A DNA stretch of 64,000 nt from a virus (taxonomy: Duplodnaviria > Caudoviricetes), in IMG/VR virus record IMGVR_UViG_3300020236_000037, positions 2,051-66,050 of that record. One strand, given 5' to 3'. Positions 1,630 to 61,682 of this stretch are shown piece by piece; the stretch's first letter is position 1; every line of letters begins with the position of its first letter. The notes below the pieces were generated by a model. It made no database searches, had not been told where the DNA came from, and was given only the letters and a program-made list of their open reading frames with translations. The position numbers were made by a program, and so were the translations under genes.

Positions 1630-4125
1630 ATGGCACTTCAGCCAATGGCAAGATTTGATGTTATCCCCTACCAGAGGATCACTTCGTCTTTTAAGGTAGG
1701 CGTAGTTGCCTTTACGAAGCCAGGCATTGAGAAGGTTGCGTTTTCGTTCAATGGTGGTGCGGTCATCAACGTCACCAATATGACACTCAATGACCGTGTA
1801 GGCGTGTGGGAATACTGGACGACTCTCAATCCAGCCAGCTATGCGAATGGCGAAGTAGTGACAATTGACGCCACGGTGACGGGGAATGACGGCGGAGCTA
1901 GGGCACTGCCACAAATCTCAGTCGTAGCAGACAACAGCGGGACGTATCGCGTCGTCAAAGCGTGGGTCGACACGGCTGGCGATGACAGTACAGGTATAGC
2001 CTCGGCAGCGGAAACAGGCACGAATCCATTCGCGACAATTGGCAGGGCCGCCGATGAAATACAAATTTACCGCAACGCTCAAGGGTGGGGAAATAACGCA
2101 GACGGTGGCGTTATCTATCTCAACGAAGGCGACCATACGTGGGCGTCTCCGACGACAAGGTATCGGATTGTACTACAAGATGAATGGTTGACAATTACGC
2201 GAGACATATCTGCTAGCAAGGCATTGACACGTATTACAGTTCTTGCATTTGGGCTAGGTGTAGATCGCGTAAAAGTGTCTGGGATTACAGCAGACAAATC
2301 GAATAATGGCATCAACGAATTATTTGGCGGGAACACGCTCGCAAACATTGCTTGGATTTGGTTCAACGACCTCGACGGTAGAGGGTACAGTCCAATAGCT
2401 GATCAAAGTATACTTGCAGGCGGCAAAATAGATAACGCTTACTACACGGAATGCACACTGACTGATTTGTGGCGACCAACCGCAAAGGGAAAGATTGCCC
2501 GTAACATTACGATACAAAACTGCGGGAGCGATGCGTTCCGAAATTGCCCATTGATTATCAACGGTGATGTTGATAACGCTTCCCCAGGTGGCACAGGAGA
2601 ACACACGGATCTGGTTCAGTTCTTCAACAACGCTACTGATCCAACGCTAGATTACAACGTTATCGTTTTTAACGTTAAGGGCACAAACCTTGGATACCAG
2701 GGTGTGTTTTGGCGTGGTGACGATGTTGATCCTGGAGGTACAGATGGTGCGGCGTTTGTGAACGTATACGCAGAGGGGAAAAACACAACGCAAGAGTCAG
2801 GGTTTGTGTTTCGCCGTTCCATGGCTCAATTACTGCTTTGGAATTGCGTATCAACTGGTGGTAAAAATGCAGATGGAAGCAGTAACGATTTTGTTGTAGC
2901 AATCTATTCGGATTCAGGAGGGTTGGCAGGTCTGATTTCGCAATCAGAGGTAAACGTAATTGGTTGCTCGTTTAATATGGTCGCTCGGTTTTCTGGAGGG
3001 GTGAACTATACCGACTGGTGGGACAATCATTACAAGTTCGGAATCAACACGCGAAATAGTTGGGTGACGCCCGGTACAAATTTCACACTTGGTGATCCTA
3101 TGCTCGACGCAACTGGGCATCCGCAAACTGGGTCTCCGTTACTTGAACGGATTGCGGTAATGTCAATCAACTCGGATTACGACGGGAACGACAGAACGCC
3201 ACCTTCATCATTAGGGATTTATCGCGGTCCATCAGAAGGTGGAATTAACAGTGTCACACAACAGAATACTGGAGTAGTGTCCGCAGTAAGCCTAGATACT
3301 GTTGTTGCGGCTATCGTTGATGTCAATGTCGGCGTACTAGCAGCGGGAGTAATTACCGTCGTAGCGCTAGATGTAATAATTAAAGAAGATGTCGACATTA
3401 GGATTAACGTACCTATCCTATCGTTGGTATCTGTGACGGCATTCGATCCTGGTTCATTTTGGAGAGCTAGGTTAGCTATTGCATCTGTTGTTGGTTTACC
3501 CACCACGGTAACTACCGGCGTAAAGATATTCAGCGGAATTCCAAAATTTGGGGATTTCGGCCAATGGACACCCGCGATATCGACGCGATGGTCAATTCAA
3601 AGCGATGGAGGTAGCGATCGTTTACTAATCAACACAAGCGATTATGCGGCATTGTCGGGGCAGCGACTTGGCGAGATTGCGGTCGTAAATTCGAATATAT
3701 ACGGCAATTTTTCGGCGCACTTTACGGTTAAGACGCAGGAGTCACTTGGGGCAAATACATACGCCGATTTTGCATTCGTGTTCGGATACGTTGACAGTAA
3801 CAATTACAAGTATTTTATCGTCAATGCCGATCAGGTATCGAACGAGCTATATGATGTTATCGTTGGCAGCAGGGGGGCGGCAATTGGCACGGCAGGCACA
3901 GCAGGCATCGTGGATGAAGCGTACCACGGTTTTGCGGCTACCCGAGAGGGCACGACGCTTACGATAACCCGTGACGGAGCGGCGTTTTTCTCGATTACGA
4001 ATGCAGCCGTTGCGGGCAGAGGTCAGGTAGGTATCGGTGGATACAACGATTCATCGATCTGGGACGATATTAAATTCACATCAGTTACGCCTATTTCGCC
4101 TGCGATAATGCAGATGTCAGTATAG
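1630..4125 (+). CDS. large putative virion surface protein (beta-helix-like core, C-terminal ConA/lectin-like domain)
   Basis: Long ORF with likely ATG at 1630; GDxVYLxxG-type beta-helix start; C-terminal beta-sandwich ending GQVGIGGYNDSSIWDDIKF. Confidence 0.55.
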   Translation: MALQPMARFDVIPYQRITSSFKVGVVAFTKPGIEKVAFSFNGGAVINVTNMTLNDRVGVWEYWTTLNPASYANGEVVTIDATVTGNDGGARALPQISVVADNSGTYRVVKAWVDTAGDDSTGIASAAETGTNPFATIGRAADEIQIYRNAQGWGNNADGGVIYLNEGDHTWASPTTRYRIVLQDEWLTITRDISASKALTRITVLAFGLGVDRVKVSGITADKSNNGINELFGGNTLANIAWIWFNDLDGRGYSPIADQSILAGGKIDNAYYTECTLTDLWRPTAKGKIARNITIQNCGSDAFRNCPLIINGDVDNASPGGTGEHTDLVQFFNNATDPTLDYNVIVFNVKGTNLGYQGVFWRGDDVDPGGTDGAAFVNVYAEGKNTTQESGFVFRRSMAQLLLWNCVSTGGKNADGSSNDFVVAIYSDSGGLAGLISQSEVNVIGCSFNMVARFSGGVNYTDWWDNHYKFGINTRNSWVTPGTNFTLGDPMLDATGHPQTGSPLLERIAVMSINSDYDGNDRTPPSSLGIYRGPSEGGINSVTQQNTGVVSAVSLDTVVAAIVDVNVGVLAAGVITVVALDVIIKEDVDIRINVPILSLVSVTAFDPGSFWRARLAIASVVGLPTTVTTGVKIFSGIPKFGDFGQWTPAISTRWSIQSDGGSDRLLINTSDYAALSGQRLGEIAVVNSNIYGNFSAHFTVKTQESLGANTYADFAFVFGYVDSNNYKYFIVNADQVSNELYDVIVGSRGAAIGTAGTAGIVDEAYHGFAATREGTTLTITRDGAAFFSITNAAVAGRGQVGIGGYNDSSIWDDIKFTSVTPISPAIMQMSV

Positions 4126-34738: not shown

Positions 34739-37700
34739 ATGTCACAGCTACCATCACTCCAGGGACTTGGTGGCCTGCCTACTCTAGGTGGAATTAGCCG
34801 ACCACAGAATCCAAACTTCATACCGAAGTTCCCCAAGGACGAGCAGGAGTCTCTCAAGAGTACTGTCCTGAACTCTGTGGTTGCGCCTCTTGCGTTCATT
34901 GGTGGTGTGCTTGGTACACCTGGAGGGTTTGTCCGGGACACTCTTGCCGGAAAGAACCCCTTCCCTAACGTCTTCAACCCGGAAGAGCGCACGACTGGAA
35001 AGGATCTTCTCCAGGAATGGGGCGCGCTCGACAAAAACGACGATAGCTGGGGGGGGTTCTTCGCTGGGTTAGGCGCCGAGATTCTTCTCGACCCACTCAT
35101 TTTCCTCACTGGACCAACCAAGGCTGTTACTAGTCTCGGCGTCAAGGGTGGATTACTTGTTGGAGCCAAGAAGGTCGGCAAGTATGGCAAGAAGCTAACT
35201 GGAAGTAACATCACTCGTGTCATCGAGGAGATTGGCGCAGGCGAGCGCGCTCTTGCGGGTCTGAAGGTCCCCTTTGTAAAGAAGCCATTCGCAACGTTCG
35301 GAACTGGCAAACGATCGGCCAACTTGCTTGAGGCAGTTGCGTATGCACCCGGCATCAGGCAGACAAGGCAGATCTTCAGCGCTGTTCCGGGGATGAAGTA
35401 CGGTGCTGAAAAGAAGCTTCAGATGGAAGCTGATATCAACTACTCAAGACTTCTGGATATGACAGCGTCTGCACAGAAGCAGATCTCCACGCACGGAGGT
35501 CAGGTTAACGAGTTCGATGCCTTATGGGAAAACGGACTGAAGAACTTCATCCAAGACCCCGACAACATGGACATTGTGCAGAGGGTTCTTCCTGACGTAG
35601 ATCCAACGAATATCAGTCTTGACGACTTCATGAGGACACTCGCAGAGCAAGCTGCGAAGAAGCCATCGAAGGTAGCCGCGGGTGAGATCGGCACTGCCTC
35701 TAAGACGCTGGCTGACCTTGAGGCAATCAAGCCTACTGCAGCACAACTTCTAAAGGATCTTGGCGCATCAGATAAACTTGTATTAATGGGTAAGGACGCG
35801 GACCAACTACTGAAGCTCAGGGAGACTGTTAAGTGGGTTGATGAATCGACGACACTGAAGGATGTTGCGGACAGGATGGACACTCTCGTTGATGAAGCCA
35901 TTACTCTGAAGGACAGTGTCAACGATCAGGCTAGGGAGCTTGGCCTTACGGCGAACATTCTTGGCGATGAACTTATCGGTCACTTCCCTCGAAGGATACA
36001 AGAGGATTTCCGGCAGGCATTCGGAACGAAGGGACTTGGACTGTGGGCGCGTCTCGGTAAGAAGGGTGGACCGTTCAGTGAGTACATGATCAAGAGGTCT
36101 GATGTAATCCGCGACATACCAACAAAGACATTGAAGGACATGACTAAGGATGATGTCCTCATGTCTACTGTTCGTGTGGTTAACGGCACGCAGAAGATAG
36201 CAACTGAGATCCCTGAGCACTTCACGAACCTTGGTGGAGACGAACTTGCACGCTTAGGTTTTGGTCCAGAGCTTCTCGTTAAGTTCGGTGTTGATCCGTC
36301 GGATCTTGAGAGATATGGATTCGGACCAGAGGAGATAGCTGGCCTTGACTACAAGAAGCTAGATAAGATCGCTGAAGGACCTTCACTCAGCATGGAAGAC
36401 TTCTTCATGTCTTCCGATGAAATAGAGTCTGTGATCAGCGGTGAATTGAAAGCGGTTGACGAACGTGCAATACGAAATGCTGTTGTAAAGCACGGCGATC
36501 TGAGTGATGTCATCAAGTCCGTGCGCAGAGAGCATGTGCGCTTCTCAAGTGTTGTCGACGAGGTATCTGAAGAAGGCGCAGTGAAGGCCGGTGAGATTGA
36601 GAAGTGGATTTACAACATGCCGATGCCTGGTGTTAATGCCAGGCGTGATGTTGCGCAGACAGGTTGGTTCAATCAAACAGTCATGCGAGACTTGAGTGAG
36701 TACACCCGAAACAACATCGACAGAATACAGGGGACTCGGTTTGCACTTAACTTCCTTGCCAGGAGAGCAGAGACGGACCTTCCGGGTGGGATGACCCTTG
36801 CGGAGGTGGTTAAGAAAGCCGGCCTATCAAACAAAGCAGTGAAGTACCTTGCGGCAAAGGGAGTCGACCCGAACCTTGCGATGGTTCCAGAGTCGCTGAG
36901 CAAGCAGCTCAAGAACATGATCGAGTTCCGCGGCAACCCGAAAGCCGAGTCTGCGTTTGGTGAGACGTTTGACAAGATCATGGCGTTGTGGAAAGGCTCA
37001 ATGACGATGCCATTCCCTGCGTTCCATGACAGGAACTTTGTCAGTGGACTCTGGCAGAACACAATGAATATCTCCAGTGGAAGTCCGCTGGAAGTCTTCA
37101 GGGGATACAGGAACGCAGCCTATGCGATGGCTGGGAAGAAGGTGGAAGCTGGTGGCCTTGATCTCGTGACTGAGGCGAAGGCTTACAACCTACTTCCCGA
37201 GGGTGGACTGAAGTCTGCAGACCTTGTGTCACCTCTCATCTCAGGAAGACCTCTCGACATTGAGGCGCTTGGGAAAGAGGCGCTCGGTGTTATTAACCCG
37301 AAGAGCCTAGCAAGACCGGTAGAATCAGGAGCCAAGGTTCACAACTACGTTGAAGGACTCAATAGGCTGTCTGCATTCAGTATGTTGCTTGAGCAAGGGA
37401 AAGACCCTGCCGCGGCTGCACTGGAGGTGATGAAGAACCACTTCGACTACGGATCTCTGGCTAAGAGTCATCCACTCCAGGCGAGGACATTGAAGCGTGT
37501 GATACCGTTCTACACGTTCACGCGATTCAATCTCCCCAGGCAGGTGATGGACCTTGCGATGCGACCTGGGGGAAGACAGGCACAGAACATCAGGCTGTTC
37601 GAGAACATCAGGAGAGAAGCTGCCGGGAACGAGTTCTTCCCGTCCTACCTAAAAGAGGCGCTTGTAATCCCAACTGACGAGTCTGACGGAAGGAAGAATG

Positions 37701-47563: not shown

Positions 47564-47890
47564 ATGAGAACTGCATACTGCCCGAAATCACACGCGGAAT
47601 TGGCATCTGTTACTGTCGGCACACCGTATGGTCATGTGCCTGGGCACACATATCGGGATGTCGATATCGTTGTTTCGAAAAAGAACGATAAGTTCCGCGC
47701 CCATATTTGCGAAACCTGGGGCTCGGCCCAAGGGTTTGACGAAGAGCACGGGCGGCGAGAAGTTATCGGCCGTGGCGATTCTATTCGAAAATCACTCGAC
47801 GAAGCACTTGACCGCGCAAGAGAAGCCGACATTACGCTGGATCTACTCATCCAGGCCGTTTCACTAGCCGAAGATGAAGCCGACGAGTAA
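47564..47890 (+). CDS. hypothetical protein
   Basis: GGAG RBS, ATG at 47564. Confidence 0.55.
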   Translation: MRTAYCPKSHAELASVTVGTPYGHVPGHTYRDVDIVVSKKNDKFRAHICETWGSAQGFDEEHGRREVIGRGDSIRKSLDEALDRAREADITLDLLIQAVSLAEDEADE

Positions 47891-47891
47891 C

Positions 47892-47951
47892 GCGAAACCC
47901 GCCTAGTGCGGGTCCGATAGACTGGCAATCTATCGCTGACGAGCACGCCAG
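47892..47951 (+). ncRNA. type II hammerhead ribozyme with pseudoknot
   Basis: gc-GAAA-CCCGC/GCGGG-UC (cleavage after 47914)-CGAUAGA/UCUAUCG-CUGACGA-gc; loop CUGGC pairs with downstream GCCAG. Confidence 0.85.
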
Positions 47952-48223
47952 CACCACCAAGACGATGAGCAGCGATACATTCATCACAGTCCAACCAAAA
48001 AAAGGAGAAATGCAAGGCGGGTACTCAGACTGCAGTGTATTCGTCGTTGATGACGGATGCGAAAGACCTCTATCTCACGAGGAATTTAACGAGCTGACAG
48101 AATAATCGGGAGCAATGCATAAAGGGAAACTTGCCGTGAGCAGATACGAAGAACTCGATCCGTACGGAAAGATGGGACCGGCCGATCTTGGCTGGATGGA
48201 CGGAGAAGAGGAGGAGGAAGACG

Positions 48224-48457: not shown

Positions 48458-48677
48458 ACTAGCCAAGCGCCTGAATGCTGACGGACAAACCTACTGCGGG
48501 GAGAAGGCCGTCGGATTCGAGAAGAATGGACTTAGCCGCATCTACTTCGGCGTGAACTACGTCACCATCATAGATGGAAAGGCCACTAACAGGGTCCCCT
48601 CGGCCTGGGGAAAGAGTATCGGGAACTCGGCAGTCGAACTCGTTGAACAGTATCTTAACAAGGAGGACAGACAATGA
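48450..48677 (+). CDS. hypothetical protein
   Basis: Overlaps both neighbours. Confidence 0.5.
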   Translation: MNKLAKRLNADGQTYCGEKAVGFEKNGLSRIYFGVNYVTIIDGKATNRVPSAWGKSIGNSAVELVEQYLNKEDRQ

Positions 48678-49315
48678 AGAAGGCTGCAGACTCATGTGAC
48701 GGCACAAGGACGATTGTCATACCGAATCTTCATCTACATCGCATTGTGCTTCGGATTCGAGGCACATCGCCGTATGTACAAAATAGATTCAGTGCCAAGG
48801 CGGCAGCAGCAATTCTGGAGAACCAGCAGTCCACGAAAGCCACCAGGAAGAAGGCTGGGCCACTGGACGTTGAAGAGCAATACCAGAACGCCTTCCATCG
48901 GTCGCCCGACGGAAAGTGCGGTATCCCAGCAACTGCATTCAGAAACGCAATGATCTCTGCCTGCAGGGTTGCTGGATTTCAGATGACAAAGGGAAAGATG
49001 TCTGTCTTTATCGACGCAGACTTCTATGACGAAGTAGACGGCGTTCCGCTCGTTGCCATTTTCGGGGACTACGAGAAACTAGTGGCACCCGTCAGAACGA
49101 GTGACGGCAAGAAGTTTACAATGTCAGTTCGGCCAATGTGGAGGGAATGGAGTGCTGTGGTCAAGATAAACTATGACCCGGGACAGTTCGGCCCGAGGGA
49201 CGTGGCGCACCTCATGATAAGGGTGGGCATCCAGGTTGGCGTGGGGGAAGGGCGCCCTGACTCGAAGAACTCCAACGGTTGTGGTTGGGGTACATACTGT
49301 CTAGAAGAGAAATAG
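48674..49315 (+). CDS. stand-alone RAMP / Cas7-like protein
   Basis: LRIRGTSP (beta1), GIPATAFRNAMISA (IPxSxxKG-like), RPMWREWS, C-terminal Gly-rich loop GIQVGVGEGRP...GCGWGTY. Confidence 0.7.
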   Translation: MKKAADSCDGTRTIVIPNLHLHRIVLRIRGTSPYVQNRFSAKAAAAILENQQSTKATRKKAGPLDVEEQYQNAFHRSPDGKCGIPATAFRNAMISACRVAGFQMTKGKMSVFIDADFYDEVDGVPLVAIFGDYEKLVAPVRTSDGKKFTMSVRPMWREWSAVVKINYDPGQFGPRDVAHLMIRVGIQVGVGEGRPDSKNSNGCGWGTYCLEEK

Positions 49316-49325
49316 GAGGTGTCCC

Positions 49326-49814
49326 GTGGCGAAGTTTAAGGAAAAAGCAACGCTTGAACTTACCAGGATCTACCACAATAATGGGGGACTCAAGGCATCA
49401 GATGTTCTTGATGAGGCAAGGTCCGAGGACTCGCCCATCCATGAGTATTTCGAATGGGACGACAGCGTTGCGGCAAATCTGCACCGCCTCAAGCAGGCAA
49501 GGGTTCTTATCAGGGTGACCCCTGTTGAGATCTCAGAAGGTGTTGAGGAGAAGTTTATTCACGTTTCAGGTGCCAACGCATACTCCGAGGGAACCTATCT
49601 CCCGCCATCTGTAATCGTTCAGAATGGGGACATGTTCAATCGCGCTGTCAGTGAACTGCTAGGCAAGATACATGCCATGCAGTCAACAGTAGAGGATCTG
49701 CGTTCGATCTCAGGGTTTGCCGGCGGCACCGCAGAATCGCGGGTCCAGGTTGCGCTGAGATCACTTGAGGTTGCTGAATCCAGCCTCCAGCTCATGCTGC
49801 GTGAGGCTTCGTAG
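49326..49814 (+). CDS. conserved phage partner protein of the RAMP gene
   Basis: LKASDVLDEARSEDSPIHEYFEWDDSVAA..HRLKQARVLIR motif; GGAGG RBS with GTG start. Confidence 0.65.
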   Translation: MAKFKEKATLELTRIYHNNGGLKASDVLDEARSEDSPIHEYFEWDDSVAANLHRLKQARVLIRVTPVEISEGVEEKFIHVSGANAYSEGTYLPPSVIVQNGDMFNRAVSELLGKIHAMQSTVEDLRSISGFAGGTAESRVQVALRSLEVAESSLQLMLREAS

Positions 49815-50085
49815 CAGGCCGGGCGTAGCTAGGAAAACCAATGAGCTACTTGGCATGGCAGGCTATGCGTGGCAGCGATCTGATCGCCACAGAACTGCAC
49901 TACACGGCAGGCACGGCGCTGCGGGGCCAAGAACGGAATATCACGGCAGGAGATGCAACGCACCGCACCAAGCTGCGGGGCCAAGAACGGAATGACACGG
50001 CAGGCATGACATGGAACGGCATCTCTTGGCCAATCTCAGATTGTCATGGCTACTGGCTGGTCGTCGAGAGATCGGCGGCCAGCCC
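49813..50085 (+). repeat. 5-nt-periodic repeat array (five GGCAG-led units) ending in a hairpin
   Basis: Units at 49813, 49857, 49906, 49945 and 49999; lengths 44/49/39/54, all 5n+4; pentamers about NG(C/A)-NN; terminal stem ggctggtcg/cggccagcc. Confidence 0.8.
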
Positions 50086-50119
50086 CTTTGAGGCGTAAAG
50101 TCAACAGGAGGATAATTTT

Positions 50120-61248: not shown

Positions 61249-61682
61249 TGCCTTTAGGTAAGAGATCGCGTCCGCGTTCGTTGTCGGGACCTCGTTCATG
61301 GTCTGGCTCGATTTCGTGTTTATGTTCGCGTTCATGGTCTGGTTCGGTTTCGGTTTCGTGTTCGAGTTCATGTTCGCGTTCGCGTTCATGGTCGGGTTCG
61401 AGTTCGAGGTAACAAGTGTGCAAAGAAAGAGGAGGGCCAGCAAAATGCTAATGCCATCCAATAAAAGAAAGCGGTTGGGGTTGTGGATGTGGTCGGGATC
61501 GCGCTCGGGGCCGCGGTCATGGTCTCGCTCGTGGTCGCTGTCGTCGTCGGGGTCGGGGTTGTCGTCATGGTCGCTGTCTGGATCGCGGTCATTATCGGGG
61601 TTGGAAATGTGTACGTGGTCGCTGTCGGGATCGCATTCGTGGTCGCGCTCGGGGTAACAAGTGTGCAAAGAAAGAGGAGGGC
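61231..61682 (+). repeat. two framed units of 6-nt-periodic G(T/G)TC-NN repeats
   Basis: Identical 22-bp leaders (61231, 61434) and identical 30-bp trailers (61408, 61653); unit lengths 203 and 245 differ by 7x6; ORFs 61242..61412 and 61445..61657 read MLMP-basic-(Ser-X)n. Confidence 0.9.

Follow-up and report, generated by a model that had tools for sequence, protein, structure and literature searches.

VIPR (Viral Interference Programmable Repeat) systems, as presented in two preprints (bioRxiv 10.64898/2026.04.26.720920 and 10.64898/2026.04.26.720927), are built on Vipr, a minimal RAMP protein encoded mostly by phages and usually accompanied by one accessory gene, vap. Their guides (vrRNAs) are made of tandem GGY-NN pentamers, each of which is bound by one protomer with the GGY flipped out; the NN dinucleotides pair with DNA, every third base of the target being skipped, and the transcription of competing mobile elements is silenced. 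The first preprint distinguishes seven VIPR types (I-VII) among 667 representative systems, names in the legend to fig. S18 "staggered arrays" in which vrRNAs overlap by one nucleotide, mentions a "frequently observed internal degeneracy" together with the alternative repeats NNNGG, YNNNG and NNNNG, and gives a caller that takes at least four YNNGG repeats (bioRxiv 10.64898/2026.04.26.720920). In this work, we describe a locus of vipr, vap and a putative guide array in a 64,000-nucleotide (nt) stretch of DNA from an uncultured phage (IMG/VR record IMGVR_UViG_3300020236_000037, positions 2,051 to 66,050), hereafter the window, and compare it with these systems.

We are highly confident that the locus belongs to VIPR as a kind, and we consider it likely that it represents the VIPR system of a tailed phage from a hydrothermal-vent metagenome, with the order vipr, vap, staggered array and the mechanism proposed below; that the array is still in use is somewhat more probable than not. 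The VIPR systems described in 2026 thereby gain a member from a phage of hydrothermal vents. The kind itself was published in that year; what is distinctive here is a strongly degenerate guide scaffold with intact junctions, which alone does not change the general picture.

A 5-nt-periodic array adjoins the vap gene

The features of the locus, all on the + strand, are as follows.

48674..49315, + strand: vipr, a 213-amino-acid Vipr-family RAMP protein with an RRM core, thumb arginine R153 and C-terminal G-loop Q187-S197
49326..49814, + strand: vap, a 162-amino-acid accessory protein with a predicted N-terminal winged-helix-like domain and a C-terminal helical hairpin
49813..49816, + strand: AGCA, the junction-like start of the array as read from the sequence, overlapping the vap stop codon TAG (49812-49814)
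49817..49860, + strand: vrRNA unit 1, 8 slots + GGCA, 44 nt; NN = CG GT TA AA AA GC TT AT
49861..49909, + strand: vrRNA unit 2, 9 slots + GGCA, 49 nt; NN = TA GT AG TC TC AC AC AC AC; end AGAAC-N8-ACGGCA
49910..49948, + strand: vrRNA unit 3, 7 slots + GGCA, 39 nt; NN = AC GC GG CA AC AT AC
49949..50002, + strand: vrRNA unit 4, 10 slots + GGCA, 54 nt; NN = GA AA AC AC GC GG CA AC AT AC
50003..50051, + strand: vrRNA unit 5, 9 slots + GGCT, 49 nt; NN = AT AT AC AT TT CA TC TT AT; 3′ limit less certain
50055..50084, + strand: hairpin closing the array, 13 bp, GC-rich, -29.9 kcal/mol, z -3.5, with a weak U run after it
49841..50098, + strand: an open reading frame (ORF) of 85 amino acids overlapping the array and the terminal hairpin, judged spurious

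From the vap stop codon onward extends a tract of 240 nt which contains no convincing gene and has a hairpin at its end. Between 49817 and 50051 it is periodic with a step of 5 nt and consists of five units of 44, 49, 39, 54 and 49 nt, all of them 5n+4 in length. The hexamer GGCAGG at 49857, 49906, 49945 and 49999 marks the four GGCA/GG junctions between the units; the + strand of the 64-kb window has only 25 copies of it in all, and the four in the array fall in a span of 143 nt. The tract displays the architecture of the family arrays described below: 5-nt slots, 4-nt GGCA/GG junctions, units of 39-54 nt, the same strand as the genes and a beginning at the stop codon of the gene before it.

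To score the periodicity, we used a chain model of GGY-starting slots with a step of 5 nt, or 4 nt at junctions. The scan gave 16.5 for 49817-50032, a score that no other chain on either strand equalled; the runner-up in the 64-kb window reached 8.0. The chain stops at 50032, and unit 5 is closed by a GGCT variant of the junction at 50048-50051. Among 2000 composition-preserving shuffles of the tract none reached 16, the maximum being 10.5. The 5-nt periodicity of 49817-50051 is therefore real but weak, and Tandem Repeats Finder did not report the tract.

All seven NN dinucleotides of unit 3 (14/14 bases) recur as the last seven of unit 4; the two segments differ at 6 bases, every one of them in a triplet. 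By our own estimate, the chance of such a pattern is about 0.03. A recent duplication of 38 nt, with the likeness at its edge, would be another explanation, and since the likeness concerns one duplicated segment only, it is suggestive of the NN positions carrying the information, as the preliminary description of this DNA had proposed, and no more than suggestive. The five units, the 5n+4 lengths of the four that it counted as complete, the closing hairpin and the NN string shared by units 3 and 4 all stand as that description gave them; its NN strings were reproduced as well, except that the first slot of each unit had been left out. The ends of units 2-4 have in common the framed motif AGAAC-N8-ACGGCA.

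Folding of the array tract revealed no significant secondary structure (z -0.66), as would be expected for a single-stranded scaffold coated with protein, and no Rfam family was found within the array. Small palindromes occur in the most degenerate parts of units 1 and 2, namely GTAGCT...AGCTAC in unit 1 (49827-49851) and GCGATC-T-GATCGC in unit 2 (49861-49909). The hairpin at 50055-50084 likely serves as the transcript end or as 3′ protection; a simple terminator scan did not call it a terminator, and a hairpin 3′ of the array is not a family-wide feature.

Vipr and its partner Vap

The vipr ORF (48674-49315) is preceded by a strong ribosome site. A profile built from 33 family members, the window protein included, matched the chain annotated as "SUSP1 Vipr protein" in a solved structure (PDB 36pp_D) with an E-value of 2.2e-7, residues 21-195 of the query being aligned with 2-180 of the 202 in the target. 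The AF2 model of the protein (pLDDT 85.8) retrieved exclusively Csm3, type VII Cas7 or Cmr4 as top Foldseek matches, while in VIA-align the top 25 matches were all CRISPR RAMPs, headed by Csm3 and Cmr4 (both Z 8.1). Taken together, the profile match and the predicted fold identify the protein as a Vipr homologue with a RAMP fold, which bears out the RAMP assignment made in the preliminary description. Vipr belongs to phrog_4652, listed in PHROGs as of unknown function, and neither Vipr nor Vap was matched by a model of Pfam, NCBIfam or PADLOC.

The family is large: a word-level search yielded more than 1100 homologues, and a profile search 4207 representative clusters at E<=1e-3. Its alignment contains an invariant G-loop, Q-V-G-x-G-E-G-R-P-D-S, and an invariant thumb motif, R-P-M-W, and all 42 family-invariant residues are retained in the window protein. 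The residues R138 and R179, which contact GGY in SUSP1 Vipr, align with R153 of the thumb and R194 of the G-loop, both conserved.

The conserved partner gene that had been noticed beside vipr is indeed the accessory gene of the family, as judged by sequence: in 63/80 related loci, vipr is followed immediately, on its own strand, by a vap homologue, and the two genes occur in an identical set of 33 phage records. Vap is assigned to phrog_15946. In its AF2 model (pLDDT 93.8), the N-terminal domain is helical and bears a beta-hairpin as a wing, while the C-terminal part forms a long helical hairpin. Among full-length Foldseek matches, even the best, to regulators of the PadR/MarR type (4nb5, probability 0.97), are weak. 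These share the layout of an N-terminal winged-helix-like domain followed by a C-terminal helical hairpin, but the E-value is only 0.02 and a sequence family match is absent; in VIA-align only the generic C-terminal hairpin was matched. The model suggests that Vap is probably a winged-helix protein and predicts it to bind DNA, in agreement with the statement in the preprint that several vap genes code for winged-helix-like DNA binders (bioRxiv 10.64898/2026.04.26.720920).

Residues 6-34 of Vap (window 49326-49430), with the consensus G-x-L-x-P-x-x-V-V-x-x-A-R, show a weak likeness to a single TAL-effector (TALE) repeat, L-T-P-E-Q-V-V-A-I-A-S. The Vap profile (A2) reached an E-value of 1e-10 against Hax3/TALE chains only by summing 12 weak repeat matches. 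This likeness may reflect chance or a shared helix-loop-helix unit for reading DNA.

Staggered arrays accompany vipr in the related loci

We examined 88 related loci, comprising 80 IMG/VR viral contigs with homologues 44-53% identical to the window Vipr, 5 loci of its closest relatives and 3 cultured phages. In all 80 IMG/VR loci, a GGY-NN chain directly precedes or follows the gene and shares its strand, with scores of mostly 40-300. In the closest relatives (Vipr 55-57% identical), vipr-vap is flanked on either side by textbook arrays, and the cultured phages, Cyanophage Cy-LDV1, Mycobacterium phage Saal and Gordonia phage ODay, have clear GGY-NN arrays. The 5-nt periodicity for which homologous loci were to be inspected is thus present in them, and is far clearer than in the window.

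The junction logo of the family is GGCA/GGC with a 4-nt slot, and the most frequent unit lengths are 44, 49 and 54 nt. The boundary CA[CT]GGCAGG occurs in 65/88 loci and at 4/4 junctions of the window, and in one related locus (L001) the array likewise starts where the gene before it has its stop codon. The first slot after the junction is GGY in 96% of family units, compared with about 65% of internal slots, and the per-unit mean is 0.72. Since these arrays match the window in junctions, strand and unit lengths and fit the published staggered vrRNA arrays, the kind is already known. The preliminary description, which saw here a candidate non-CRISPR system resembling VIPR, was right in the identification; a candidate new class it is not, staggered arrays and degenerate repeats having been published. 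The anatomy of the staggered-array family, with its GGCA/GGC junction, units of 44-54 nt and unequal first and internal slots, is hereby documented over 88 loci.

In the clade of closest relatives (L085-L087; arrays L085:3024-3128 and 3666-3933), each unit ends in an invariant 10-nt sequence, GAACACGGCA, before the next GGC. In contrast to the 4-nt junction in most of the family, this boundary leaves the net frame unchanged, and it looks like a short constant handle. The framed AGAAC-N8-ACGGCA ends of units 2-4 in the window recall it. In Saal (with 27 related mycobacteriophage records), ODay and Cy-LDV1, the vipr and vap genes and the staggered GGC-NN arrays are annotated merely as hypothetical proteins. 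The Saal array (L094, NC_023580, record 36584-36834) adjoins a region of immunity repressor, antirepressor and excisionase; gp51 of Saal is annotated with a start that extends into the array.

A proposed mechanism

The steps of the mechanism are modelled on the published work on SUSP1 and P. fulva. The array would be transcribed together with vipr and vap as the 3′ end of their operon, and the transcript would be cut at or near the junctions to release five vrRNAs of 7-10 pentamers each. Every pentamer would be bound by one Vipr protomer, such that the triplet is flipped out and the NN dinucleotide is presented; the NN string would then read double-stranded DNA with one base skipped per pair (NNx). 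The resulting filament, aided by the probably DNA-binding Vap, would silence the transcription of a competing mobile element. Loading of Vipr may be directed by the GGCA-GGC motif of junction and first slot and by the cooperative 5-nt spacing.

Target searches

The guides, coded as NNx, were compared with the phage's own sequence, IMG/VR, JGI metagenomes and GTDB genomes, the large collections being scanned for exact matches only. This search with the NN strings, which the preliminary description had proposed, revealed no natural target above chance in any of these. There was no NNx self-match to the phage genome. The exact scans returned 0-15 matches per guide, roughly the number expected by chance, and the matches were of low complexity, redundant copies from a single lineage, or out of codon phase. 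Unit 4 had 0 exact matches in IMG/VR; its single match among JGI metagenomes and its 2 among GTDB genomes together represent a gene of a Fibrobacter metagenome-assembled genome (MAG), counted twice, and a Rubripirellula MAG, again about the chance number. The 4 matches of unit 2 in IMG/VR were all unrelated trinucleotide repeats in the wrong codon phase. Units 5 and 1 gave 13 and 15 matches there, which were redundant copies from a few lineages without enrichment of codon-aligned sites. Against the vipr or vap loci of relatives, no match exceeded the shuffled-order controls.

A working array or a relic

In its triplets, the window array departs strongly from the family. Four of the five units begin with GGY, but among the internal slots GGY is found in only 8/38 (21%), against about 65% in the family, so that the triplets are indeed notably more degenerate, as had been observed at the outset. 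By unit, GGY fills 2/9 slots of unit 2, 3/7 of unit 3 and 1/10 of unit 4; a GGY fraction under 0.3 is seen in just 2.4% of family units. The deviant triplets are mostly one or two substitutions away from GGC (TGC, CGC, GGA, GAC, AGA), and the second G is the best-kept triplet position (20/26). The four internal junction hexamers are perfect (24/24 bases) and the 5n+4 phase holds in every one of the five units, whereas internal triplet positions are conserved at about 60%. The gradient in the window is thus that of the family in a stronger form, the first slot being kept and the internal slots eroded.

Several observations weigh against a functioning VIPR system with the array in use. The strict published call, at least four tandem GGY-NN (YNNGG), finds nothing in the window, and the chain score of 16.5 is the lowest of all loci not cut by a contig end, the others scoring at least 40. 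In SUSP1, disturbing the GGY motifs abolished silencing; therefore, the degenerate guides of the window might not load. The lack of targets above chance points the same way, as weak negative evidence given that only exact matches were sought in the large collections, and no RNA sequencing run was found to contain this DNA. The terminal branch leading to the window Vipr is long (0.76, with a median of 0.29), and three GGY-contacting residues of SUSP1 Vipr are replaced in it, H17, which contacts G1, by N37, D177 by E192 and W178 by G193. The last two changes are family-wide, and the position equivalent to H17 varies across the family (H, A, N, L, C, Q) even where arrays are perfect. In loci with N or C at this position, G1 conservation is somewhat lower (about 0.75-0.82, compared with about 0.9); since the loci are not phylogenetically independent, this trend is a lead only.

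The strongest rival explanation accepts the locus as VIPR and takes its array for a decaying relic, in which vipr and vap are intact while the substituted guide triplets permit neither loading nor targeting. Such decay would account for the scarcity of internal GGY, for odd triplets lying so close to GGC, for the lowest chain score among complete loci, for guides without a detectable target and for the long Vipr branch, and the dependence of SUSP1 silencing on GGY would make it consequential. But neutral decay that had brought the triplets to a divergence of about 40% should also have struck the junctions and introduced indels, yet the hexamers are perfect, the 5n+4 phase is kept, first slots remain GGY in 4/5 units, the framed AGAAC-N8-ACGGCA ends are retained in units 2-4, and the invariant residues of Vipr are intact. 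We regard a relic as the less likely reading, but as a serious rival.

Because uniform neutral decay would not have spared the junctions, the phase and the framed ends, and because Vipr has kept its invariant residues, we lean towards an array that is still in use and stands at the extreme of the family-wide gradient. A further and more speculative possibility, which we hold to be unlikely, is that in this lineage GGY is no longer required in each repeat: loading would be set by the GGCA-GGC motif of junction and first slot together with cooperative 5-nt spacing, and the internal triplets of such a relaxed scaffold would drift freely or carry additional information. If this were true, the number of constant bases on which a guide code depends could be far smaller than in the published systems. 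A working array would in any case provide a natural lower limit on the GGY scaffold that Vipr needs, which is relevant to the engineering of minimal guides; an array that does not work would exemplify a VIPR locus that loses its guides before its proteins.

It is highly improbable that the tract mainly codes for the 85-amino-acid protein (49841-50098), with a periodicity that is incidental or left from an overprinted array. An open frame does cover the tract, with AGGA six bases before its ATG, but this ribosome site is weak in comparison with the GGAGG of neighbouring genes, and GC-rich repeats are often open by chance. The signal has a period of 5 and not of 3, the duplicated units differ non-synonymously, and the frame continues through the terminal hairpin. 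Translation of the array, which had been raised as an objection early on, gained nothing from the searches: the ORF has no homologue but itself among 5.8 billion proteins, none in the 80 related loci, and no Pfam or PHROG match. Because homologues are absent and the ribosome site is weak, the ORF is regarded as spurious.

Least probable of all is an unrecognised CRISPR-Cas remnant, or a RAMP-like protein with another RNA-binding role, that merely happens to adjoin an unrelated tract: the fold matches are CRISPR Cas7-type proteins, but, in keeping with the preliminary description, Tandem Repeats Finder detected no CRISPR-like array across the 64-kb window and neither Vipr nor Vap, the only two locus proteins screened, matched a cas or defence family (PADLOC, NCBIfam), while the sequence homologue of solved structure is Vipr and not Cas, and gene and pentamer array are found together in every related locus examined.

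The phage and other features of the window

The window covers 64,000 of the 66,050 nt of one contig, which bears genes for a major head protein, the large terminase and the portal; it therefore derives from a tailed phage. The sole sequencing run that contains this DNA is a hydrothermal-vent metagenome, probably its source, and no relative emerged when 24 kb were compared by megablast with 50,697 phage records. The neighbours of the locus are small phage ORFs and one helicase.

At 47890-47952 (+ strand), 0.72 kb upstream of vipr and separated from it by four small ORFs, lies a segment that matches the type II hammerhead ribozyme (RF02276) over its full length with 33.8 bits and E 4e-4, just below the gathering score of 37. 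Ribozyme-interspersed arrays are described for other VIPR types in the preprint (bioRxiv 10.64898/2026.04.26.720920); across 20 loci of the present family no hammerheads were found. At 61293-61590 (+ strand), 3′ of a small gene, there are two 6-nt-periodic tracts (units such as TTCGTG and GGTCGT), flanked by repeated leader and trailer sequences and reported by Tandem Repeats Finder with period 6 and 15.7 copies. These may represent another repeat-coded RNA, yet they are also readable as Ser-X repeat peptides.

Comparison with known systems

One group to be compared comprises the backbone RAMPs of class 1 CRISPR systems (Csm3, Cmr4, type VII Cas7, Csf2). They have in common with Vipr the fold (Z 6-8) and the G-rich loop, and the periodic flipping of bases by the thumb is presumably a common mode of binding. 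They use a 6-nt ruler and come with cas partners and CRISPR repeats and spacers, whereas the array described here has a 5-nt ruler, no CRISPR repeats were detected in the window and neither of the two locus proteins matches a cas family; the window Vipr would flip out three guide bases per unit and is a single RRM without elaborations.

A second system is the type II VIPR of Escherichia phage SUSP1 and of a P. fulva prophage, which has been characterised experimentally (bioRxiv 10.64898/2026.04.26.720927; PDB 36pp) and whose Vipr is homologous to that of the window (profile E 2e-7). Shared with it are the arginines of thumb and G-loop, pentamer-coded guides and an accessory protein that probably binds DNA, a property predicted for the window Vap. 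The SUSP1 vrRNAs, about 100 nt long, comprise 9-16 repeats and end in a pseudoknot tail that is invariant at their 3′ side, while the units of the window measure 39-54 nt and have only the junction motif in place of a tail. The G-loop reads D-W-R in SUSP1 and E-G-R in the window, N stands in the window at the position of H17, and the window vap is not recognisably similar to SUSP1 vap1 at the BLAST level.

The closest described counterpart is the staggered-array VIPR, with which the window shares a stand-alone Vipr RAMP, an adjoining vap and the phage context. There, units abut with a one-base offset, whose counterpart in the window is the 4-nt GGCA slot that gives units of 5n+4. Internal degeneracy and variants of the NNNNG type have likewise been published for these systems; the triplets of the window are far more degenerate than those of any of the 88 related loci.

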